From assembly GCA_944390285.1 (NCBI GenBank), contig CALXPN010000002.1, positions 31,762 through 95,761 on the forward strand: a DNA stretch of 64,000 nucleotides, in the 5' to 3' direction. The DNA comes from an uncultured Clostridia bacterium. GTDB taxonomy: Bacteria > Bacillota > Clostridia > TANB77 > CAG-508. Every line of letters starts with the position of its first letter. Within the stretch, counting starts at the first letter, position 1. Positions 6,338-39,135 of this stretch are shown in pieces. The notes below the pieces were generated by a model. That model had not been told where the DNA came from. It was given only the letters and a program-made list of their open reading frames with translations, and did no database searches. The translations under genes were made by a program, and so were the position numbers.

Positions 6338-8488
6338 ATGGTATTTATGAAAAGATCTAAGCTTATTTTTATAATAATTTTAGTCATATATTTTTTACCA
6401 CTTATTTTAATATGGTTTGAAGAAGCAGAAATAAATTTGAATCCTTTTGATTATGCAAGAATAACAGATATAGATTATACAGCTGTTGTTGCAGATAATC
6501 CAGGTGATGGTGGAAAAATTTTCGTAACAGAAAGATTAACTTATGATATACATGCCGCTTCTAAAAATAATCCTTTTTGGGAATTGTGGAGAGACCTGCC
6601 AGAGGATACTGTTGATGGACTTAAAGTTGAATATAAAGTAAATTCTGTAAAACAAATTTTAGATGATGGTACTGAAATCGCGTACGAAGAAAGTCCAAAA
6701 CTTTATTGGAATGACAGTGATTATCTTAGTTCTTCTACTCTATATGGTCCTGGTAAATGGTATCATAGTGAGGGTCCTTATAATGAAGATAAAAGACAAT
6801 ATGAATGCCTTCTTTTATATGTCGATGGTCTATATAGAGAAAAAGTAACATTTGAGATAGAATATGAAATGAGTAATGCATCTTTATATTACAATGATTG
6901 CTCAGAATTATACATATCTCTTTATTCAGGAAATACGATAAAATATCTAAATTCTTATGATGGTCAAATTTTATTTCCAAATTCTATTATGCCTAAAGAA
7001 GGAAACTATGAAGTACACACCTATGGCACAAATAATTATGATTTTCCTTACACAGAATCTGATACATTAAATCCTGGATATCATACTTTTTCTTTTAAAT
7101 TAGATAAAAATAATTTAAAATTTATACCTTATACTAATTATTTAGAATTTGCTCTAATTTCATTTGGTGAAGATAAACATTCTTTTACCAAATATGCACC
7201 TGAAAATTATTATTCAGGAGATAATGTTCTTTCAGAATTACGAGATGACAATACTAGTTTTGAGGAAACTAAAGAAAAATCAAAACAATATCAAATATAT
7301 TTACTTATAGGAGCTATTATAACTTCTATATTTATTACGATTTATACGATTAATACTAATAAAAGAATGAGCAAAAAGCACAAATTTTATAAACCTACTA
7401 CAAAGATAAAGTTTTTTAGAGAAATTCCAAGTGATTTAGATCCAAACTTTGTTGCTAATCTATTATTCAGTAAAAGTAATCGCACAAATTATAATAAAGA
7501 TGGATATTCTGCTACAATACTAAGTTTAGTACGCAAAAAGTATATTAAATTAGAAAAAATCGAAGATTATTTAGATTGGAATTTTAATAATGTAAAAATT
7601 GTAATATTAAAAAAACCTGAACCTATACAACAATTAAACTTACTAGAAAATGATTTAATAAACAAAAATAACAATATCGATAAATCACTTACACTTACTC
7701 CTACTGAAGAGCATTATTTTAATTTAATATGTAAATATTCTTCGTATGGAATTGAATTACCTATGGAAATTTTACAAAGAAAAGTAGCTTCTGATTATGA
7801 AAACACAGAAACTTTTATTAATAATATTAATAGCTCTATAACAAATATAGGAGTAACAGAAGGATATTTTCAAAAATCTGATTATACTGAAGCAAAAACT
7901 TCTATACAACATTTATCTAAGACATATAGAAATTTAGGAATCTTATCTATTATTTTATGCAACCTAATTTCATACTATTTTACTTTTTTAGGAATTTCTT
8001 ATGGAGCTTTCTTTATATTAGGTTTTGTATTTTTAATTAATTCATTATATTTAAGAAAGATTTCTGGAAAATATGTTTTACTTACACAATTTGGTGAAGA
8101 TGAATATGAAAAATGGAGAGGATTGTATAATTTTTTAAACAGTGAAACTCTTATGAAAGAACGTACAATTATTGAACTTCCTTTATGGGAACAATATTTA
8201 GTATATGCAACAGCTTTTGGAATTTCAGAAAAAGTTATAAAAGCCTTAAAAATTAGATGTCCAGATGTAACTTCGAGTGATATGCTTAGTAATCCTTACT
8301 ATAGTTCTAGATCTTTTTATAGATCTAGTCATTCATTCAGATATGCTACTCATTCTGCTATACGTACAGCACATTCTTCTAGTTATGGAGGATATGGTGG
8401 ATTCAGTGGTCATGGCTACGGTGGAGGAGGCCGTGGTGGTGGCGGTGGCCGGAGGGGGTCATTAACACATATTATAATAATTAAATAA
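6338..8488 (+). CDS. DUF2207-like membrane protein with C-terminal Gly-rich tail
   Basis: 716 aa; N-terminal signal anchor, large extracytoplasmic domain, multiple TM helices, tail SSYGGYGGFSGHGYGGGGRGGGGGRRG. ATG at 6347 has the better RBS spacing. Confidence 0.55.
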   Translation: MVFMKRSKLIFIIILVIYFLPLILIWFEEAEINLNPFDYARITDIDYTAVVADNPGDGGKIFVTERLTYDIHAASKNNPFWELWRDLPEDTVDGLKVEYKVNSVKQILDDGTEIAYEESPKLYWNDSDYLSSSTLYGPGKWYHSEGPYNEDKRQYECLLLYVDGLYREKVTFEIEYEMSNASLYYNDCSELYISLYSGNTIKYLNSYDGQILFPNSIMPKEGNYEVHTYGTNNYDFPYTESDTLNPGYHTFSFKLDKNNLKFIPYTNYLEFALISFGEDKHSFTKYAPENYYSGDNVLSELRDDNTSFEETKEKSKQYQIYLLIGAIITSIFITIYTINTNKRMSKKHKFYKPTTKIKFFREIPSDLDPNFVANLLFSKSNRTNYNKDGYSATILSLVRKKYIKLEKIEDYLDWNFNNVKIVILKKPEPIQQLNLLENDLINKNNNIDKSLTLTPTEEHYFNLICKYSSYGIELPMEILQRKVASDYENTETFINNINSSITNIGVTEGYFQKSDYTEAKTSIQHLSKTYRNLGILSIILCNLISYYFTFLGISYGAFFILGFVFLINSLYLRKISGKYVLLTQFGEDEYEKWRGLYNFLNSETLMKERTIIELPLWEQYLVYATAFGISEKVIKALKIRCPDVTSSDMLSNPYYSSRSFYRSSHSFRYATHSAIRTAHSSSYGGYGGFSGHGYGGGGRGGGGGRRGSLTHIIIIK

Positions 8489-22619: not shown

Positions 22620-24527
22620 TTACTTTAACGGCCTCCGCCACCTCCGGCCTCCACCGCCAAATCCTCCTCCTGTTGAAAATCCTCCACCAGCACCTGTACC
22701 TGATGAATAATTTATACTACTTCCAATAGAAGAATTCATTGTATTTATAAAATTAAAATTACTATTTGAATTAAAAGCTATATACATATATGAATAATTA
22801 TTTCTTAAATATTGTTCATCACCAAGCTCTGGAAATTTTACTTTTAATTGTTCTATAACTTTTTCTGAAATTCCAAATGCTGTTGCAAAAACTAAAAATT
22901 TTTCCCATAATACTAAATCTGGAACTTCTTTATCATCAAGTTTTGAAAAATCTTCCATATATCTTTTTAGAGCACTCCATTTTTCCCTCTGATTTGCACC
23001 TTTTTGTGTTAATCCATTAAATCTTGATATATAGCACATTAATTTTGTAAAAACAGCTATAGATAAAACCAAAAATATAACTGAAATTGCAACTATTGAT
23101 GAAGCAAAAATCATACCAAACGCAATTATTATACAGAACATTAGAATTACACAAGGAACTGTATATTTTGCACTTTTTTTGATTATATTCTCATCATATG
23201 TTTCTTTTTGTGTATTTTCTTTTTTAGCTAGTTTTGAATATTCTTTTACTAATTCTTGTACTTGTTTTGTATGTTTTTTATTATACTTTTCAAAATCTTT
23301 TATTGTAAATATATTATTATTACTTATATTTTTTAAATAATTGTATAAATATTTTTCATCTTCATTTAATTCTTTTCCATTCTTATTTAATTTTATGATA
23401 AAATTTTTCTTAGTATTTTCAATACTTTCTTTTTTATTGTCAGATTGTTTTTCTTCAAAACTTATCCACCCTTTTAAGCACATATTAAGCATTGTAGCTG
23501 AAATTATTTTTCCTATATTATAATCTGTATTATTCAAATAATATAGAAAACTTGCTTCTAATACACTTGCATTTTCATCTGGTAATTCTCTAAAATATTT
23601 TATTTTTTCTTCTGGTAATATTTTAGGATTTTCTTTTGACTCTTTTGAAATAGTAAACCAATATTTGATACATAAAACACTTCCTATAATTCCAACAATC
23701 ACAACAATATTACTAACAAGCTCTTGCATTTTTTCATTTTTTTCTCTTTTTTCATTTGCTTCATTTGCATAATCTGTCTCTTCAGAAATTATTGTATCTA
23801 ATTTATTCTCATCTACTTTTTTTTGTGTATTTATAAACATAGATGTTGGTGTTGCAATTCTAATTTCTAAAAATGTATTTCTTTCTAAATTCTCTACACT
23901 AAAACTAGCTTGATATTGAGTATCTTTGTTTATATTTCCATTAAGTGGTCCATGTGCCCATACTCTAAAATCTTCTTCATCTACAATTCCATATGGTACT
24001 TTTATAATTCCATCTATTTTTTCTATTGGAATATCAAAATCATCTCCTATTAATTTCCAATAAACTTCTGCACAATCATTATATAATGTTACATGATTTG
24101 CAACTGTATAATTTATCTCAAATGTCCTTGTTTCAGTTCCACTAACATCAACTCCCCATGCAATCTCAAAATCATTATCTGGATTTACTAAAGCTTGATA
24201 ATAATTTCTATCTACATGATATGAATACTCTTCTTTTGGTTCATATACAACTTTTTTTCCATCAGTTAATATTTCTGTCACTGTAACATCCTTTATTTCA
24301 TCATAAGAATCATCCATTTTAAAAGTTTTAAATAATGTATTTGTATCTGATATTTCTATATTCCAAGTTTCTTTAATATCCAAATCTCCATTATTTCTAA
24401 CTAATACATCAAAATTTAAATTATTAATCTTCTGCGATTCTGCAAAAGAAGATTTTGGTTTAATAAAAAATATTAAAACTGCCAAAAATATAATAAATAT
24501 TACTTTTAATAAAACATTTTTTTTCAT
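22620..24527 (-). CDS. DUF2207-like membrane protein with C-terminal Gly-rich tail (paralog of 6338..8488)
   Basis: Same architecture as 6338..8488; tail SGTGAGGGFSTGGGFGGGGRRWRR. The ATG at 24527 is preceded by AAGAGG. Confidence 0.55.
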   Translation of the reverse strand: MKKNVLLKVIFIIFLAVLIFFIKPKSSFAESQKINNLNFDVLVRNNGDLDIKETWNIEISDTNTLFKTFKMDDSYDEIKDVTVTEILTDGKKVVYEPKEEYSYHVDRNYYQALVNPDNDFEIAWGVDVSGTETRTFEINYTVANHVTLYNDCAEVYWKLIGDDFDIPIEKIDGIIKVPYGIVDEEDFRVWAHGPLNGNINKDTQYQASFSVENLERNTFLEIRIATPTSMFINTQKKVDENKLDTIISEETDYANEANEKREKNEKMQELVSNIVVIVGIIGSVLCIKYWFTISKESKENPKILPEEKIKYFRELPDENASVLEASFLYYLNNTDYNIGKIISATMLNMCLKGWISFEEKQSDNKKESIENTKKNFIIKLNKNGKELNEDEKYLYNYLKNISNNNIFTIKDFEKYNKKHTKQVQELVKEYSKLAKKENTQKETYDENIIKKSAKYTVPCVILMFCIIIAFGMIFASSIVAISVIFLVLSIAVFTKLMCYISRFNGLTQKGANQREKWSALKRYMEDFSKLDDKEVPDLVLWEKFLVFATAFGISEKVIEQLKVKFPELGDEQYLRNNYSYMYIAFNSNSNFNFINTMNSSIGSSINYSSGTGAGGGFSTGGGFGGGGRRWRRPLK

Positions 24528-24546
24528 AAGTACCTCTTTCTTACTT

Positions 24547-25257
24547 TTATTTTTCTTCACCTAATTGTCTTTCTTTTACTGCTAATGCCTTTGCAATTCC
24601 TTTTTCAAAAGCATTTGTCCTATGATACTCTTTATTTAATCTTTTATATTCTTCTAATAACTTCTGTCTTTCTATTTCTGTAAGCGGATATATCATCCCA
24701 CCCATTTTAGTTATTATTTGTAATTCCTCTGGGTTTAAATCTCTATATATTGGTGGTAAACCAAATCTTTTAAAATTCATTATTTCAAAAGGATCTAAAT
24801 CTTCTGCATCTGGCATAATATCTTCTAAACCAACTTTCATACATCTTATTTGATAAATATCCTCTAAAGAATTTATTTTTCCTTTTTCTTCTCCCCATCT
24901 TTTTATTTTAATCATATCTATTCTATTTGGAACTCTTGTAGTTCTAGAAAAATATTTTTTAGTATTTCCTATTGTTTGTTCTAATAATATAGATTCTTCT
25001 ATTCCATCATCATTATAAACACTTATTGTTTTTATTTCTTCTGCTTCATTTTTTTCTAATCTCATTCTTTTTAGTTTTTCATCTAATGGATCTATATAAT
25101 ATTTAGATGCCATAACAGTATTGGAAAGAGATGTAGGTTCTATAAATGTTACTTGATTATTCTTTTCTAAATTAACTATTTCATCTAACATATCTTTAGC
25201 TTCATTAGAATATGGTCTTATATTTTTCTGTTCTAAAAAACTTGAAAGTCTCCACAA
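24547..25257 (-). CDS. Hypothetical protein; probably the frameshifted 3' part of a gene that starts at 25372
   Basis: Track ORF begins at a TTG with no RBS. An ATG at 25370-25372 with AGGAGA RBS, 10 nt after the smc stop, opens a 55-codon frame that ends at 25205-25207 and overlaps this ORF in another frame. Confidence 0.4.
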   Translation of the reverse strand: MWRLSSFLEQKNIRPYSNEAKDMLDEIVNLEKNNQVTFIEPTSLSNTVMASKYYIDPLDEKLKRMRLEKNEAEEIKTISVYNDDGIEESILLEQTIGNTKKYFSRTTRVPNRIDMIKIKRWGEEKGKINSLEDIYQIRCMKVGLEDIMPDAEDLDPFEIMNFKRFGLPPIYRDLNPEELQIITKMGGMIYPLTEIERQKLLEEYKRLNKEYHRTNAFEKGIAKALAVKERQLGEEK

Positions 25258-32741: not shown

Positions 32742-33608
32742 TTAGTATGAATAAGCTTCATTTAAAATCACTTCATATCTTGCATAGTTTACTAATTCGT
32801 TTTTTTCATCATTCCAAATTCCAGAATCTATAATTCTTTCTTCGTCTCCTGATTTTATATCATATATATATGTTTCTTTAACATCTAAAATATTATCTTG
32901 CAAATCGTAATAAACTATTGAAAATCCAACACAATTTATCTCTTCTGTATAATTGTTTTTTAAAGTTATATTTATTTCACCATTTTTTAATTCATTTGCA
33001 ATTGAGATATAATCATTTAGATAATAATCTTTGTAACTTTCATCATAAAAATCTTCTTTAGTTATAAAAGTCTCATATCTAACTTGATTTTTGGGTAATT
33101 CTTCAAATTTTAAAAATCTTGATGAATTAGCTTTAAAATAATCTATATATTGTTTTTTAATATCTATTATTTTATTTGATTCATCATAATAAACTACATA
33201 AACCAAAATATTTGTTATATCTTCATTATTTTGATTTGTCATATTCAATATTAATTCATTATTTATACTTATTGATTGTTTTACTATTTGTATATTTTGT
33301 TTTTGTGTTTCAAAATTTGATTTTCTTATTTGTTCTTGAACTTCATAATCATAAACATCTTCATTTATATCTCTATAATCTTCATAATATTCATCACTAT
33401 ATTCAGAATCATCCTTATAATTATAATAATATAAAACTATTCCAACTACTACTATTAATATAATGGCTATTATTATATTCTCTTTATTTTTTTTCAATTT
33501 CCCTCTTACTTGTGCTTTTTTGCTATTTTCATCATCATCTAAACCATCTAATTCATCCATAAGTTTTTGATTGTCTAACTCATTTAAATCTTTTTTATCT
33601 TCTTTCAT
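32742..33608 (-). CDS. Hypothetical membrane-anchored protein
   Basis: Likely start MKEDKK at 33608 after AGGGGGA; single TM (IIIAIILIVVVGIVLYYY) then a Tyr/Asp/Glu-rich extracytoplasmic region. Confidence 0.4.
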   Translation of the reverse strand: MKEDKKDLNELDNQKLMDELDGLDDDENSKKAQVRGKLKKNKENIIIAIILIVVVGIVLYYYNYKDDSEYSDEYYEDYRDINEDVYDYEVQEQIRKSNFETQKQNIQIVKQSISINNELILNMTNQNNEDITNILVYVVYYDESNKIIDIKKQYIDYFKANSSRFLKFEELPKNQVRYETFITKEDFYDESYKDYYLNDYISIANELKNGEINITLKNNYTEEINCVGFSIVYYDLQDNILDVKETYIYDIKSGDEERIIDSGIWNDEKNELVNYARYEVILNEAYSY

Positions 33609-33724
33609 GCTATTTCCCCCTATATAAATTTTACCTATTAAAAAAATTTTTTTCAATATATTTTATAAAATAATGTATTTTTTTTTAATTATTGATATAA
33701 TTTAAAAAAATGTTGGAGGGAATT

Positions 33725-35095
33725 ATGAATATACGAGAAAAAATTTATTCAAAAAAACATCTAAAAGAAGTACTTCACACAACTTTAAACCCTTATGAAC
33801 CAGGAGCTGTTAGAATACATCTTGTACCACCAAAGTCTTCTTTTTGGAAATCAAGACCAAGTATAGTTATTTTAAATGGAAAAGATATTATTCCTATTAA
33901 TGAAGCTTGGGCAATTTTACTTTCGATTTTTATAAATGAAGTAAACAAATTTGAAGGTAAAGCTATTCAAGATAAACTTCTTGATAGAATTTTAAAAAAC
34001 ACTGTAGAAAAGACTAGAAAAATCTATAAGAAAACTGGAAGAATTGAAATTAAAGAAGACTTAAAAGAACTAATTAAAGTATTTACAGATATTGCATCAA
34101 CTGGTACTACTGATATTGATGTTGGCCAAATGTCTATAGGAGAATATGCTCCTAATATGCAGTCTCCACATAGAATGGATTTAATGATTAGTTCAATGAG
34201 TAAAAATAATAACTGGAATTGTAATCAAAAATGTATCCATTGCTATGCTGCTGGACAAAAGCTATCTGAAAAAGAAGAACTTTCAACAGAAGAATGGAAA
34301 AAAGTAATTGATATATGTCAAAAAGAATGTATTCCACAGCTTACATTTACTGGTGGAGAACCAACAATGAGAAAAGATTTAGTTGAACTTATAGAATATT
34401 CAAAATGGTTTATAACAAGGTTAAACACAAATGGTGTACTTCTTACAGAAAAGCTTTGTAAAGAACTATATGAAGCGAGTTTAGATAGTGTTCAAGTTAC
34501 TCTATATTCTAATAATCCAGAAATCCATAATAAATTAGTTGGAGCTGATAATTTTGAAAAAACTATAACAGGTATAAAAAATGCAATTAATGCTGGATTA
34601 AATGTAAGTATAAATACTCCACTATGTACATTAAATAAAAATTATATAAATACATTAAAATTCGCAAAAGAGCTTGGTATAACTTATGTTACTTGCTCTG
34701 GACTTATAGTCACTGGAAATGCAAAAGAAAAACAATCAAAAGATACTCAATTATCAGAAAAAGAATTATATACAATCTTAAAAGATGCAAAAAATTATAC
34801 AGATGACAATCTTATGGAATTAGGATTCACGTCTCCTGGTTGGGTAAAAGAAGATGATTTAAGAAAATTAAATCTTGATGTTCCGACTTGTGGTGCATGC
34901 TTAAGCAATATGGCTATTGCCCCAAATGGAGATGTAGTTCCTTGTCAAAGTTGGTTAGATGAAAAATCTAATTTAGGAAATATCTTAAAAACAAAATGGA
35001 AAAAAATATGGAATAATCCTATTTGCAAAAAACAAAGAGAATTTTCAAGTAAAATGTATTATACTTGTCCTCTAAAAGGAGGTAACAATGAATAA
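33725..35095 (+). CDS. Radical SAM enzyme with C-terminal SPASM/twitch-like Cys-rich domain and ~150-aa N-terminal extension
   Basis: CNQKCIHC (CxxxCxxC) radical SAM motif; GGEP motif; C-terminal CGACLSN...PCQSW plus further Cys. ATG at 33725 follows GGAGGG. Confidence 0.7.
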   Translation: MNIREKIYSKKHLKEVLHTTLNPYEPGAVRIHLVPPKSSFWKSRPSIVILNGKDIIPINEAWAILLSIFINEVNKFEGKAIQDKLLDRILKNTVEKTRKIYKKTGRIEIKEDLKELIKVFTDIASTGTTDIDVGQMSIGEYAPNMQSPHRMDLMISSMSKNNNWNCNQKCIHCYAAGQKLSEKEELSTEEWKKVIDICQKECIPQLTFTGGEPTMRKDLVELIEYSKWFITRLNTNGVLLTEKLCKELYEASLDSVQVTLYSNNPEIHNKLVGADNFEKTITGIKNAINAGLNVSINTPLCTLNKNYINTLKFAKELGITYVTCSGLIVTGNAKEKQSKDTQLSEKELYTILKDAKNYTDDNLMELGFTSPGWVKEDDLRKLNLDVPTCGACLSNMAIAPNGDVVPCQSWLDEKSNLGNILKTKWKKIWNNPICKKQREFSSKMYYTCPLKGGNNE

Positions 35096-35984
35096 AAAAT
35101 TTATTATATTTATAATAGTATTAATTGCTATTTTAGCTTTAATTTACTTTGCTGGTTCTTCTAAAGAATTAGATAGAATTGAAAATTATACTATTACAGT
35201 AACTCCTCAAGATGATGGAACATTAAATATGATTTATGATATAAAATGGAAAGTTCTAGATTCAACTACTGAAGGTCCTCTTGAATGGGTACAAATTGGA
35301 ATTCCTAATGAAAATGTAGATAATATAACTGCATTATCAAATAATATTGAAAGTATAGAACAATATAATTCTACATATGTAAAAATTGTATTTAAAAATA
35401 GTTATGAAGCAAATGAAGTTGTAAATTTTAGATATAAAATCCATCAAAAAAATATGTATACCCTAGAAGGAAGTAATTGTAAATATGAATTTACTCCTGG
35501 ATGGTTTAAAGATATTGCAGTTGATAATATTTCTGTAAAATGGAAAGCAAATTCAGTTTCATCTGCAAATACAGAAACTAGAGAAAATGGTTTTTATGTA
35601 TGGCAAACATCATTAAAAAAGAATGAAAAATTAAAAGTAGAATTAGAATATCCACAAGAAGCATTTTCAGGACTAACCTCTTCTGGAGAAAATTATAATT
35701 CTTCAAATTATACTAATAATATCAATGGTTTTGGAATTATAGGATTACTTATAGTTATAGCAATAATATCTGCATTTATTGGAATGTTCTCTTCTGACGG
35801 ATATGAAAGACATAGAGGTTATGGTGGAACAAGCTATTATAGAAGTAGTTGTGTAAGTAGCTGTGCTTGTGTAAATAGTTGTGCATGCGCTTGTGCTTGT
35901 GCTGGTGGTGGAAGAGCTGGTTGTTCAAAAAAAGATTTTTATGGGACAAAACTAAAATCTAAAGATATTTTGAAAAAATTATAA
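35088..35984 (+). CDS. DUF2207-N-domain-like membrane protein with Cys-rich C-terminal tail, translationally coupled to the radical SAM gene
   Basis: ATG sits inside ATGAATAA overlapping the upstream stop; AAAGGAGG RBS. N-terminal anchor, DUF2207-like ectodomain, second TM, tail SSCVSSCACVNSCACACACAGGGRAGC (8 Cys in about 25 aa). Confidence 0.5.
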   Translation: MNKKFIIFIIVLIAILALIYFAGSSKELDRIENYTITVTPQDDGTLNMIYDIKWKVLDSTTEGPLEWVQIGIPNENVDNITALSNNIESIEQYNSTYVKIVFKNSYEANEVVNFRYKIHQKNMYTLEGSNCKYEFTPGWFKDIAVDNISVKWKANSVSSANTETRENGFYVWQTSLKKNEKLKVELEYPQEAFSGLTSSGENYNSSNYTNNINGFGIIGLLIVIAIISAFIGMFSSDGYERHRGYGGTSYYRSSCVSSCACVNSCACACACAGGGRAGCSKKDFYGTKLKSKDILKKL

Positions 35985-36183: not shown

Positions 36184-36260
36184 GGCGATGTAGCTCAGTT
36201 GGCTAGAGCATCCGGTTCATACCCGGCAGGTCGTAGGTTCAAGTCCCACCATCGCTACCA
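36184..36260 (+). tRNA. tRNA-Met (anticodon CAT), elongator-like
   Basis: GGCGATGTAGCTCAGTTGGCTAGAGCATCCGGTTCATACCCGG...CATCGCTACCA; cloverleaf with CAT anticodon loop and encoded CCA; near-identical to the B. subtilis elongator tRNA-Met. Confidence 0.85.
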
Positions 36261-36488: not shown

Positions 36489-37052
36489 TTAGATTTCTAA
36501 TTCTTTTTGTTGAATATTTTGTAATAATTTAACACTATCTAGCATATTTTCTTCAAGATAATATTTATTTACTTTTTCTATTTCTTTTTCTTTAAATTTG
36601 TCGAATACTGATGTATATGTATTTAAAGTTACTGATACATCTTTATGTCCCATTAATTTTTGAACAACCACTGGTGCCATACCGCTTTCAATACATCTTG
36701 TTCCGTAAGTATGTCTTAAACTATGTGTTGTAATATCCTCAATTCCAAAGTGTCTTTTTAATAATCTTTTTAGTTCTGTATTTACATTTTCTCTATCTGT
36801 ATATTTTCTACATTCAGGTTTAAATAATAATTTTTCTTCGTTATTTTCTTTTATATATTTTAGTATTTCTAAACCTGATAAGTTTATGTTAATAATTATA
36901 ATATCAATATTTTTATTAATAATACTTTGCATAGCTTCATTTATATTATGTGATATGTTATATATTTTTAAATTACTTATTGAGTTTGAAATTTTGTTAA
37001 TAATTTTAGACATATAATCTAAATTGTTATCAATAATCATTAGATTTTGCAT
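36489..37052 (-). pseudogene. Tyrosine recombinase/phage integrase C-terminal catalytic-domain remnant fused to a receiver-like N-terminal fragment
   Basis: HSLRHTYGTRCIESGMAPVVVQKLMGHKDVSVTLNTYTSV carries the HxxR...Y active-site region of tyrosine recombinases. The N-terminal 80 aa look like a CheY-receiver fragment, and the integrase N-terminal and core-binding domains are missing. Confidence 0.5.
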
Positions 37053-37123: not shown

Positions 37124-38461
37124 TTAATCTTTATCAATTTTTTCTAACTCAATTGTAACTGGGTTTCCATAAAACTCTATTATAACAGATATTTTATTTG
37201 TTGCATCATATTTTGTCATTTCAAATGTTTCATAAAAATCAAATTTATTTCCATATATGAAATTAGCATTTTGCTTTCTGGTTGGGCTCATTGTACATCT
37301 AAATTTTTCGTTATTAGAATTAAGGACATAACTTCCTTCAGTATTTTCATTAGATGTTATTATTTGTGATTCGCCATTAACATTTATAGGTTGCATCTTT
37401 TTCCAATATTCTTCATACATTTCTTTATATGGAGATTGACTATATAGTTCTTTTAGTGCATTATTTTCAACATTATCTACATTATTAATATTAGAAAGTA
37501 TAGTTGTAGGTATAATTACTGTTTTTTCATCAACAATTTCTATATCTTTATTAACGTTATTAGAATTAATTTCATTTTCTTTTTTCTTTAACTCTTCTGG
37601 ATATGTTGGTTCTTCTATATCTGAAATAGTAATTCCAATTTCAAATCCAGTATCAGAAACTTTAGCAGTATAAATATCAAAGTTATCGTTATCACAATTT
37701 ACTACTTTGTAATATTCATATGACCTATTGTACATTACTTCAGGAATTTCTAAATGAATTTTCCAATTACCAGAGAGTATTATTGCATCTTCAGTATCTT
37801 TTTTAGTAATTTTAATTTTGCTAAAATTCAAATGTAATTCTTTTAAATGAGGATATTTTTCGTTATAAATATTGTAAGTTAATGTTATAATATTATTTTC
37901 TGAATTATATGCTGTTATAAAATTATTTACACCACCTTTCATATAATCTTCATATTTATAGGATAAATTGTTTTTTATGCAAAAAAATTCAAAGTCTTCT
38001 TGATTAGCTCCATTAAAAACAATTTTGTTATTTTCATCAACAATAATCAAATCGATTAAATCTATATTTTTTAAATTATTTAAATCTATTAAGTTATTTA
38101 TATCATTTTGAAACTGAAAATCAAAGTGAATACCAATATTATAATCATCTATGTAAAAATCACTTATTTTAGTTGCAACATCAATATTATCTATATTTGT
38201 TGTAGAATTTACAAAATCCATATTAGTTTCTTTAATATAACCATTGTTAATTGCTGTTTCTATGCCATTTCCTAAGTTAAATTTATTTTTAATGAAATTG
38301 CTAATATCTGTGGCAAAAACGCAACTGGTAGTTAAAATTATACAAAAACAAGCTACAATTCCTATTTTTTTATTTGTAAATTCTGCATTATTTTTTTCTT
38401 TTTCTTTCATTTTAGATACAGCTATTTTAAATTTGATATATTCTTTTAGTTTATCTTCCAT
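37124..38461 (-). CDS. Membrane-anchored protein, candidate anti-sigma factor (DUF4179-like architecture)
   Basis: 445 aa; short cytoplasmic N-terminus, one TM (IGIVACFCIILTTSCVFA), large extracytoplasmic domain; immediately downstream of the sigma factor gene; AAGGAGG RBS. Confidence 0.4.
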   Translation of the reverse strand: MEDKLKEYIKFKIAVSKMKEKEKNNAEFTNKKIGIVACFCIILTTSCVFATDISNFIKNKFNLGNGIETAINNGYIKETNMDFVNSTTNIDNIDVATKISDFYIDDYNIGIHFDFQFQNDINNLIDLNNLKNIDLIDLIIVDENNKIVFNGANQEDFEFFCIKNNLSYKYEDYMKGGVNNFITAYNSENNIITLTYNIYNEKYPHLKELHLNFSKIKITKKDTEDAIILSGNWKIHLEIPEVMYNRSYEYYKVVNCDNDNFDIYTAKVSDTGFEIGITISDIEEPTYPEELKKKENEINSNNVNKDIEIVDEKTVIIPTTILSNINNVDNVENNALKELYSQSPYKEMYEEYWKKMQPINVNGESQIITSNENTEGSYVLNSNNEKFRCTMSPTRKQNANFIYGNKFDFYETFEMTKYDATNKISVIIEFYGNPVTIELEKIDKD

Positions 38462-38465
38462 TTAA

Positions 38466-38975
38466 CTATCCTCCTTTATAAAAATTCTTTTTGATTTTTT
38501 TTCTTGCTCTATGTAGTCTACTTCTAACATTTATTTCAGAAAGGTTTAATTCTTTAGCTATATCCTTTATAGGTTTATCAAAATAATAGAACATATTTAT
38601 TATTTTAATATCTATTTCTTTTAAACTATTAAATGTTTCTCTTAAATTATCTATATAGAAATTTTTGTCTAAAAAATTTTCTGTATCATAATATCCGATA
38701 CTATTTTCATAATCTGATAAATTATAAGTATAATTTTTTTTTCTAAAACGTTCTCTTACTAAATTCCTTGTAATACCTGAAATATATGAGTCAAATGATA
38801 CGGTTATATTTTTTTGGTTTTTCCATAATATGAAAAAAGTATCTGCTAATATTTCTTCTTTATCTTCAACACTCAAATTATTATTAGACATATTATTGAT
38901 TATTGTTCTAATATATGGTGTATATTCGCTTATTATTTTATCTAAATCTAATTCATTGCTATTTATTGTATTCAT
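38466..38975 (-). CDS. Sigma-70 family RNA polymerase sigma factor (ECF / TcdR-like group)
   Basis: Region 2 (ADTFFILWKN) and region 4 HTH (DIAKELNLSEINVRSRLHRARKKI). Likely start MNTINS at 38975 after AAGGAG; the track start at 39083 is probably too early. Confidence 0.6.
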   Translation of the reverse strand: MNTINSNELDLDKIISEYTPYIRTIINNMSNNNLSVEDKEEILADTFFILWKNQKNITVSFDSYISGITRNLVRERFRKKNYTYNLSDYENSIGYYDTENFLDKNFYIDNLRETFNSLKEIDIKIINMFYYFDKPIKDIAKELNLSEINVRSRLHRARKKIKKNFYKGG

Positions 38976-39135
38976 TAATTGCTCCTTAATAAAATCTCTC
39001 GTATATATAGTGTAATTTTTTTTTAAAAAGTTGCACTTTATTTTTAATTTTTTATTATCAAATTTTTGCAAAAAGTGCAACATTTTTAAAATTTAAGAAA
39101 CTATATATACAAAATCTTAAGAAAGGAGGAATATT

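Follow-up and report, generated by a model that had tools for sequence, protein, structure and literature searches.

A radical SAM enzyme near-obligately paired with a Cys-tailed membrane protein in gut Clostridia: a candidate maturase and substrate

What business does a radical S-adenosylmethionine (SAM) enzyme have with a membrane protein that carries a Cys-rich tail? The question is raised by a 64,000-nucleotide stretch of DNA from an uncultured Clostridia bacterium (contig CALXPN010000002.1, positions 31,762 to 95,761; hereafter the window), in which a gene for such an enzyme overlaps a gene for such a protein, here termed the partner. A first-pass annotation of the window had read the two as a maturase and its substrate, the modified element being the Cys-rich tail of the partner. 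The follow-up analysis presented here supports that interpretation on both computational points on which it could have failed, namely tail conservation and family classification. The pairing is not a product of chance and is near-obligate in both directions, and the two genes form a self-contained, translationally coupled two-gene cassette. This cassette is most likely a radical SAM maturase system targeting the cytoplasmic tail of an integral membrane protein.

The radical SAM gene lies on the forward strand at 33725-35095 and encodes 456 residues. Its open reading frame (ORF) extends to 35095 from either 33710 or 33725; because homologues (454-459 residues) begin with MNxKE and a GGAGGG stands 5-10 nucleotides 5' of the ATG at 33725, the latter is taken as the real start. 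The partner gene (35088-35984, same strand, 298 residues) shares 8 nucleotides with it. The TAA that ends the radical SAM gene (35093-35095) falls within ATGAATAA, which supplies the partner ATG at 35088, and the ribosome-binding site AAAGGAGG (35075-35082) lies in the upstream coding region, both as the first-pass annotation had described; the coupling junction as a whole occupies 35075-35095. Elsewhere, the partner is found downstream of the enzyme in 101 cases and upstream in five, and the estimated spacing in 101 related loci, with start codons picked heuristically, is mostly -11 to +7 nucleotides.

The association was examined from both sides. A search seeded with the radical SAM enzyme reached 136 species-level genomes, from which 80 loci were kept. 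Four of these (L004, L011, L033 and L056) were excluded from evaluation, their contigs stopping within about 0.5 kb of the radical SAM stop codon. In all 76 evaluable loci the tail protein adjoins the enzyme: the neighbouring ORF matches C.C.C.G.GR.GC in 73, and three carry the variant CACACASSGRAGC. These paired loci are drawn from Clostridia, Lachnospiraceae, Oscillospiraceae, Erysipelotrichaceae and Anaeroplasmataceae. The reverse search, using the partner protein as seed in metagenomes, returned 80 loci, in 74 of which a radical SAM gene is adjacent; in five of the six exceptions the contig is cut at the partner gene, and the sixth is considered below. Orthologues of the enzyme do therefore sit beside a Cys-tailed partner wherever the locus could be evaluated (76/76), the reverse holding in 74/80, and the loss of the tail from orthologues retaining the enzyme, which would have spoken against a maturase, was seen in none of the 76. 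The family is a large one, comprising 3065 partner homologues (647 clusters at 50% identity) and more than 6600 homologues of the enzyme. The same tail motif occurs in nearly all complete members among the 647 partner clusters, and the tail feature is far beyond chance.

No third gene accompanies the pair. Clustering of all ORFs from 81 neighbourhoods (the 80 genome loci together with the window) revealed no further conserved gene; the other recurrent clusters were antisense ORFs inside the two genes themselves, and no protease, transporter, reductase or regulator was conserved as a third partner. Genomic contexts differ between carriers, another of which has giant Flg_new-repeat proteins and an amidase nearby. 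Nearly all hosts are uncultured Bacillota of the gut or rumen (Candidatus Scatovivens, Lachnospiraceae, Oscillospiraceae, Erysipelotrichaceae, Anaeroplasmataceae and Anaerovoracaceae), with Dorea phocaeensis Marseille-P4003 (locus L063) as a cultured carrier. The window has 25.8% G+C, in keeping with a low-GC clostridial source. Relatives 98-99% identical to the cassette proteins are found in metagenome assemblies only, and the nearest orthologues of the enzyme in genome collections, from Candidatus Scatovivens and Clostridia metagenome-assembled genomes, are 65-69% identical. An origin in a defence system or phage was rejected: PADLOC matched no defence system, the enzyme showing only generic radical SAM similarity to pVip and the partner nothing, and a single match was obtained among 2.9 million viral contigs.

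One locus departs from the one-to-one arrangement. At L074 (1629-5854), three ORFs bearing the CACACAGGGRAGC tail surround a single radical SAM gene, one of them on its upstream side and two on its downstream side. Ahead of its ectodomain, the first downstream paralogue has a long acidic Tyr/Asp-rich insert. By analogy, the arrangement resembles clusters for ribosomally synthesised, post-translationally modified peptides (RiPPs) that hold several precursors.

The element shared by all of these partners is the tail. In the window protein it follows the second hydrophobic helix and contains RGYGGTSYYRSSCVSSCACVNSCACACACAGGGRAGCSKKDFYGT..., the stretch SSCACx...KDFYGTKLKSKDILKKL and ...SCACACACAGGGRAGCSKKDFYGT; written as RGYGGTSYYRSSCVSSCACVNSCACACACAGGGRAGCSKKDFYGTKLKSKDILKKL, it has the 8 Cys residues that had been reported for it, and it is the sole CxCxC run within a real ORF in the window. 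Three segments can be distinguished. A variable cytoplasmic linker (residues 235-264; 35790-35879), rich in Gly, Tyr, His, Arg and Ser and containing SSCx repeats, leads to the near-invariant core motif CACACACAGGGRAGCSKKDFY (residues 265-285; 35880-35942), the proposed site of modification and recognition. A Lys-rich C-terminal segment, GTKLKSKDILKKL (35943-35981), follows, in which periodic hydrophobic residues suggest a possible amphipathic helix. Hydrophobic residues are conserved at +14, +19 and +23 after the motif in 134 distinct tails, and the AlphaFold2 model places helices at 281-285 and 291-297 with a predicted local distance difference test (pLDDT) score of 55-62.

Anchoring the same 134 tails on GRAGC gave the nearly invariant motif C-A-C-A-C-A-G-[GS]-G-R-A-G-C-[STA]-x-K-[DN]-[FL]-Y, with per-position conservation of 81-100% and at least 99% across the CACACA...GRAGC core. 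The regular expression by which the tails were collected constrained nothing but the Cys positions, [GSA][GS]G, R, [AV] and GC; it did not prescribe the Ala residues of the CA repeat or those at K, D/N, F/L and Y. Every motif position draws on all of its synonymous codons, including four Ala, four Gly and six Arg codons, which indicates selection on the protein rather than on a DNA repeat. On this codon use, together with the conservation at the protein level, a (TGYGCN)n repeat artefact was rejected. Around the constant motif, both ectodomain and cytoplasmic linker diverge, the linker varying in length and composition through Gly/Tyr-rich stretches, His runs (HHHHHH), Pro-rich sequence and extra SSCA repeats. 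Neither the glycyl-radical motif RVxG[YF] nor the sulfatase motif CxPxR fits the tail when compared by eye.

Two kinds of variant tail were encountered. At L050 (1636-3045) and L101 (608-1903), a zinc-ribbon-like CxxC-x(10-12)-CxxC element (e.g. KCQGCGAPRGENETKCPYCGRSF) stands between the transmembrane helix and the Cys/Ala tail. Several representatives of the 50%-identity clusters (P0355, P0361, P0365 and P0374) seem to end in such a ribbon; since the full-length loci place it upstream of the usual motif, these representatives are probably truncated gene calls, and the ribbon was rejected as a replacement for the Cys tail. P0296 and P0314 end ...VHVHAQAEEEQVALKKIF..., the +1 frame of CACACAGGGRAGCSKKDF, and are thus frameshifted versions of the tail; the shift could be due to sequencing error, a pseudogene or slippage in (TGYGCN)n.

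The remainder of the partner is consistent with a simple membrane topology. In its AlphaFold2 model, hydrophobic helices at residues 3-22 and 214-234 flank an extracytoplasmic beta-sandwich; the first-pass annotation had likewise placed an ectodomain between two transmembrane helices. The sandwich (about residues 28-190; 35169-35657) is predicted with pLDDT above 90 and carries the conserved stretches DGTL.I.Y.I.WKVLDS..EGPL.WV.IG.PN and FTPGWF. The second helix (35727-35789; hydrophobic GFGIIGLLIVIAIISAFIGMF) is a transmembrane helix, and residues 238-279 beyond it score below 50, a prediction of disorder. A signal peptide or anchor is what the first hydrophobic segment resembles; AxA-type sites occur in homologues, one of which has a lipobox-like FCISC. 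With an N-terminal signal or anchor and one transmembrane helix, the partner should be a type I membrane protein whose tail is cytoplasmic, as is the radical SAM enzyme. Family members range from 300 to 470 residues at an overall identity of about 25-50%, and the ectodomain is moderately conserved. Neither the full-length partner nor the tail alone matched a family in Pfam or NCBIfam, or any sequence in the PDB.

On one point the first-pass annotation has to be corrected. It had described the partner as DUF2207-like and as a paralogue of two other proteins of the window. Those two, encoded at 6338-8488 (+) and 22620-24560 (-), are true DUF2207 proteins matching both PF09972 and PF20990; as had been observed, their C-termini (GGYGGFSGHGYGGGGRGGGGGRRGS and GGGFSTGGGFGGGGRRW) are Gly-rich and free of Cys, and neither has a radical SAM neighbour. 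The partner had no Pfam match to DUF2207 (PF09972 and PF20990) at E < 0.1, and lacks the multi-pass DUF2207_C region, having a single transmembrane helix after the ectodomain. Comparison of the partner family with the window DUF2207 proteins by hhalign gave one of them a probability of 72.7%, confined to 65 columns at the N-terminus that take in the signal sequence, and the second a probability of 5%. DUF2207 membership is hence not supported at the family level, and there may be a very distant relation between the ectodomains. The Gly-rich linkers of some partner homologues (GGGFGGGSRGGGFGGGG) are similar in composition to the window DUF2207 tails, a resemblance that may explain why the two were linked.

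The enzyme itself appears to comprise three domains: a putative N-terminal domain resembling a RiPP recognition element (RRE), the AdoMet radical core, and a reduced, twitch-like SPASM domain. The motif CNQKCIHC (CX3CX2C; residues 166-173; 34220-34243), whose C166, C170 and C173 bind the SAM-cleaving [4Fe-4S] cluster, is located where the first-pass annotation had put it and is invariant in 112 orthologues. The protein scores 82 bits against Pfam Radical_SAM (PF04055; cutoff 29.5), and its AlphaFold2 model has a pLDDT of 82.7, with the barrel mostly at 85-96.

The C-terminal auxiliary Fe-S domain (34880-35092) had been annotated as a SPASM/twitch-like Cys cluster, and here the label needs qualifying because only the first half of the canonical motif is present. 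The cysteines concerned, CGACLSN...PCQSW, are real, and the region matches the Pfam SPASM profile (PF13186/TIGR04085) at 37.4 bits against a cutoff of 21.5, with residues 394-453 aligned to profile positions 1-63 of 67. Of the canonical seven-Cys arrangement (CX9-15GX4C-gap-CX2CX5CX3C-gap-C), by which two auxiliary clusters are ligated, however, the enzyme has C389/C392-X9-12-G402-X4-C407 and after it only C434 and C448; the CX9-12GX4C part is there and CX2CX5CX3C is absent. By motif, then, the domain looks reduced and twitch-like. Among the 112 orthologues, which extend down to 44% identity, the SAM-cluster cysteines, C245, C301 and C407 are invariant, and C324, C389, C392, C434 and C448 are 93-99% conserved.

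Curated families offer no home for the enzyme. It falls below every NCBIfam cutoff, the best score being to NirJ2 (118.5 bits against a cutoff of 500), and so is not assigned to any family with an unrelated known substrate, as the first-pass annotation had required of a maturase of the tail. Scores against maturase models are also below threshold (SkfB 52.8/300, StsB 74.5/625, MftC 91.3/265, ACGX 55.1/400), and the WgkB, PqqE, ScmE/F, GeoRSP and HxsC models are likewise far from their cutoffs. No SCIFF-maturase model was among the NCBIfam matches listed. In the PDB, the best sequence match is SkfB, a Cys-to-C-alpha thioether synthase, followed by GDGT-MAS.

Structure was compared as well. In the AlphaFold2 model the N-terminal domain (residues 1-150; 33725-34174) consists of four beta-strands (17-21, 29-34, 46-50 and 54-58) and a helical bundle (60-74, 83-98 and 106-126) ahead of the barrel, with H18, P23, R30, P35, N51, G52, P57 and D112 conserved. 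The predicted fold of the enzyme is best matched by SkfB, SuiB and CteB. Foldseek aligned it over 420-470 columns, that is, full length including the N-terminal domain, with SkfB, SuiB, CteB and TigE, and over only about 320 columns with anSME, BlsE, PqqE and MoaA; full-length alignments were obtained only with RRE-bearing maturases. SkfB, SuiB and CteB are three-domain RiPP maturases consisting of an RRE, the radical core and a SPASM or twitch domain (PMC6231123). From the fold alignment with these three, the extension of about 150 residues occupies the position of an RRE and has the RRE-type order of strands then helices. By itself, the domain gave no sequence match in Pfam, NCBIfam or the PDB; since it is an orphan at this level, we call it a putative RRE-like recognition domain and not an RRE.

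Taken together, these observations make it fairly probable that the two proteins stand in an enzyme-substrate relation and that the radical SAM enzyme modifies the cytoplasmic tail post-translationally. We infer this from the near-obligate coupled adjacency, from the fact that no further gene is conserved, from a tail that is disordered, shares its compartment with the enzyme and holds an invariant motif of 19 residues amid variable sequence, from the several tail-bearing paralogues around one enzyme at L074, and from the recognition-domain peptide maturases that are the nearest structural relatives. During or after membrane insertion of the partner, the N-terminal domain of the enzyme would dock on the conserved K-D-F-Y and the helix that follows, a segment that would act as a 'follower'-type recognition element. 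The CACACAG(G/S)GRAGC segment would then be threaded into the active site of the barrel, where a 5'-deoxyadenosyl radical would be used for its covalent modification. As to the chemistry, our preference is for Cys-derived thioether crosslinks of the sactionine or ranthionine type, which might hold together, as a compact hairpin, two strands (the CA repeat and C-S-x-K-D-F-Y) and the GGGRAG turn. Cys-to-carbon thioethers are favoured because SkfB is closest by both sequence and fold and because alternating cysteines, a Gly-rich turn and a second strand would suit a stapled hairpin; the assignment, made by analogy, is nonetheless a tentative one, and what occurs instead may be oxidation of Cys, epimerisation or a crosslink in which the F-Y-x-T segment takes part. 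What the tail would do once modified is more speculative. It could become a crosslinked, protein-derived prosthetic element, possibly metal-binding or redox-active, that couples the beta-sandwich to a cytoplasmic output, an idea we regard as rather doubtful.

Several findings weigh against a maturase acting on the tail. The one genuine exception to the pairing, a short metagenome contig (L132, 1-2546), has a tail protein with no adjacent radical SAM gene; there, an rRNA-methyltransferase-like ORF and a Pro/Glu-rich stretch enter the partner frame and displace the signal peptide, and the contig may be a chimera or a rearranged copy. The RRE-likeness of the N-terminal domain derives from a predicted model and from alignment lengths, and no PqqD/RRE sequence signal was detected for it in Pfam or the PDB. 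The best NCBIfam scores are to enzymes of small-molecule metabolism (NirJ2, AhbD and MoaA), all far below their cutoffs. CxC repeats beside His-rich linkers and an inserted zinc ribbon would also fit a plain metal-binding or Fe-S tail. The candidate substrate, at 300-470 residues, is a membrane protein unlike a short leader-plus-core peptide.

Three other explanations may be considered. The tail could be a metallothionein-like metal or Fe-S module that is not a substrate at all and that works with the radical SAM enzyme by tethering at the membrane, by donating or scaffolding a cluster, or by sensing redox state or metal; the motif would then be invariant because of coordination geometry and docking to the enzyme. 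Alternation of Cys with Ala would put the thiols on one face of a strand, and the His runs directly upstream in many homologues, the CxxC...CxxC ribbon in the same cytoplasmic region at L050 and L101, and the atypical arrangement of eight conserved cysteines outside the SAM cluster of the enzyme all agree with such a role. A metal site alone, however, leaves unexplained both the invariant Ala, Gly, Arg and K-D-F-Y residues and the strict one-to-one coupled adjacency with a maturase-like enzyme bearing a recognition domain; moreover, the His-rich and zinc-ribbon elements vary and can be missing, unlike the motif. We consider this explanation rather unlikely.

Small-molecule chemistry fares worse. 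That the enzyme acts on a small molecule or on a membrane or envelope lipid, with the partner localising or regulating it and the tail serving as an interaction tag, would accord with the top NCBIfam similarities, which are to enzymes of tetrapyrroles or GTP, and with the lipid-modifying GDGT-MAS as second-best PDB sequence match. These similarities are nevertheless generic, the NCBIfam scores lie far under the family cutoffs, the structural ranking prefers peptide maturases aligned over their full length including the N-terminal domain, and no pathway genes co-occur, which together leave this reading very unlikely. Finally, the partner could be an oversized precursor whose last 30-40 residues are cleaved after modification and released as a free RiPP, such as a bacteriocin or a signal, everything before them amounting to a giant leader. 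Such a scheme draws on the C-terminal position of the modified segment, where RiPP cores lie, on the resemblance of the enzyme to sactipeptide and streptide maturases and on the multi-copy substrates at L074, but no protease, transporter or immunity gene is conserved in the 81 neighbourhoods; the tail, furthermore, is on the cytoplasmic side, and a disposable leader would not need so well conserved an ectodomain. We therefore think it just as unlikely.

How, then, does the proposed enzyme-substrate pair compare with radical SAM systems already described? The working mode of the cassette may be likened to that of RRE-dependent maturases with Cys-rich substrates, namely SkfB/SkfA and CteB/SCIFF. 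SkfB, which makes the sporulation killing factor of Bacillus subtilis (PDB 6EFN), shares about 20% sequence identity with the enzyme, and the N-terminal domains are without detectable sequence relation. Its substrate SkfA is a soluble 55-residue precursor that has a leader and whose operon also carries genes for export and immunity, whereas here the candidate substrate is the tail of a membrane protein and there are no accessory genes. CteB and SCIFF resemble the cassette in the Cys-rich substrate (a candidate one here), the radical SAM enzyme with an RRE (here a putative RRE-like domain) and the occurrence in Clostridia, and CteB aligns with the enzyme over 449 Foldseek columns; SCIFF, in contrast, is a peptide of about 45 residues with a motif of its own, and the CX2CX5CX3C motif is missing from the enzyme described here. 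More generally, RRE-dependent maturases carry an N-terminal winged-helix RRE (a three-stranded sheet plus helices) ahead of the core and act on a short ribosomal precursor of leader plus core that is encoded nearby; beside the enzyme described here no small-peptide gene is conserved.

A second likeness is to systems in which the modified protein presumably remains functional as a protein, as in QhpD/QhpC and anSME/sulfatase. QhpD, a radical SAM/SPASM enzyme, puts several Cys thioethers into a protein that is kept within a larger functional assembly and not set free as a natural product. Its substrate QhpC differs: this small subunit is soluble and periplasm-bound, bears Cys-to-Asp/Glu links and belongs to the qhp operon, while the partner resides in the membrane and no enzyme subunits are encoded nearby. 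The anaerobic sulfatase-maturating (anSME) enzymes, which turn Cys into formylglycine, have no N-terminal recognition domain (about 320 aligned columns) and a full seven-Cys SPASM domain, in contrast to the enzyme studied here with its N-terminal domain, and their substrate pentad C/S-x-P/A-x-R is absent from the invariant motif, in which the Cys nearest the single Arg reads C-A-G-G-G-R. The bioinformatically defined and uncharacterised ACGX system (TIGR04340) likewise combines a low-complexity Ala/Cys/Gly substrate with a radical SAM/SPASM enzyme. That substrate, however, is a free repeat peptide with a different repeat unit and not the tail of a membrane protein, and the enzyme is not an ACGX member because it scores 55.1 bits against a cutoff of 400. 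To our knowledge, there is no earlier example of radical SAM/SPASM-type modification of an integral membrane protein. In line with the first-pass annotation, which was aware of no such description, a literature search in which subscription papers were patchily covered returned no account of the motif, of DUF2207 with radical SAM, of membrane-anchored RiPP precursors or of such a protein-substrate SPASM pairing.

Around the cassette, Rfam identified only a downstream tRNA-Met (36184-36260, +) and no riboswitch or other RNA element, and consensus scans found promoter-like matches to be no commoner than in shuffled sequence, with the only terminator-like site after the tRNA. Beyond the tRNA, an opposite-strand ORF of 187 residues (36489-37052) has a weakly receiver-like N-terminus and a C-terminus that matches Pfam Phage_integrase (residues 32-151 against profile positions 48-170 of 172, the catalytic end); the whole resembles what is left of an integrase, truncated or chimeric, at a tRNA integration site. 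Further on, an extracytoplasmic function (ECF)-type sigma factor (38466-39083, -; Sigma70_r2 and r4_2) stands directly upstream of a 445-residue protein with one transmembrane segment and no Pfam family (37124-38461, -); the two (37124-39083, -) are probably a sigma/anti-sigma pair unrelated to the cassette. On the other side, a divergent gene (32742-33656, -) encodes an acidic, Asn/Tyr-rich protein of 304 residues with one transmembrane segment and no Pfam family. Homologues of it lie beside the cassette in 8 of the 81 neighbourhoods, all among the closest relatives, which probably reflects synteny rather than a functional link.

RiPP genome mining looks for short precursor peptides beside radical SAM maturases, and peptide-centred mining would miss this cassette because its conserved 'core' ends a membrane protein of 300-470 residues. 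The system is experimentally tractable: it consists of two genes without accessory factors, its tail lends itself to expression in soluble form, and at least one carrier is in culture. Its 19 near-invariant residues offer a clear testable target. Modification of the tail, if it occurs, would widen the range of substrates for RRE-bearing radical SAM maturases from free peptides to integral membrane proteins, and a large uncharacterised family would come into view, with more than 3000 partner sequences in 647 clusters (50% identity) across at least 136 species-level genomes, mostly of gut and rumen Clostridia. It would also raise the question of what role a crosslinked or metal-binding cytoplasmic tail plays for a protein with a conserved extracellular domain. 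Should the tail prove to be a prosthetic element, the cassette would encode a transmembrane device of a new kind that gut Clostridia carry widely.

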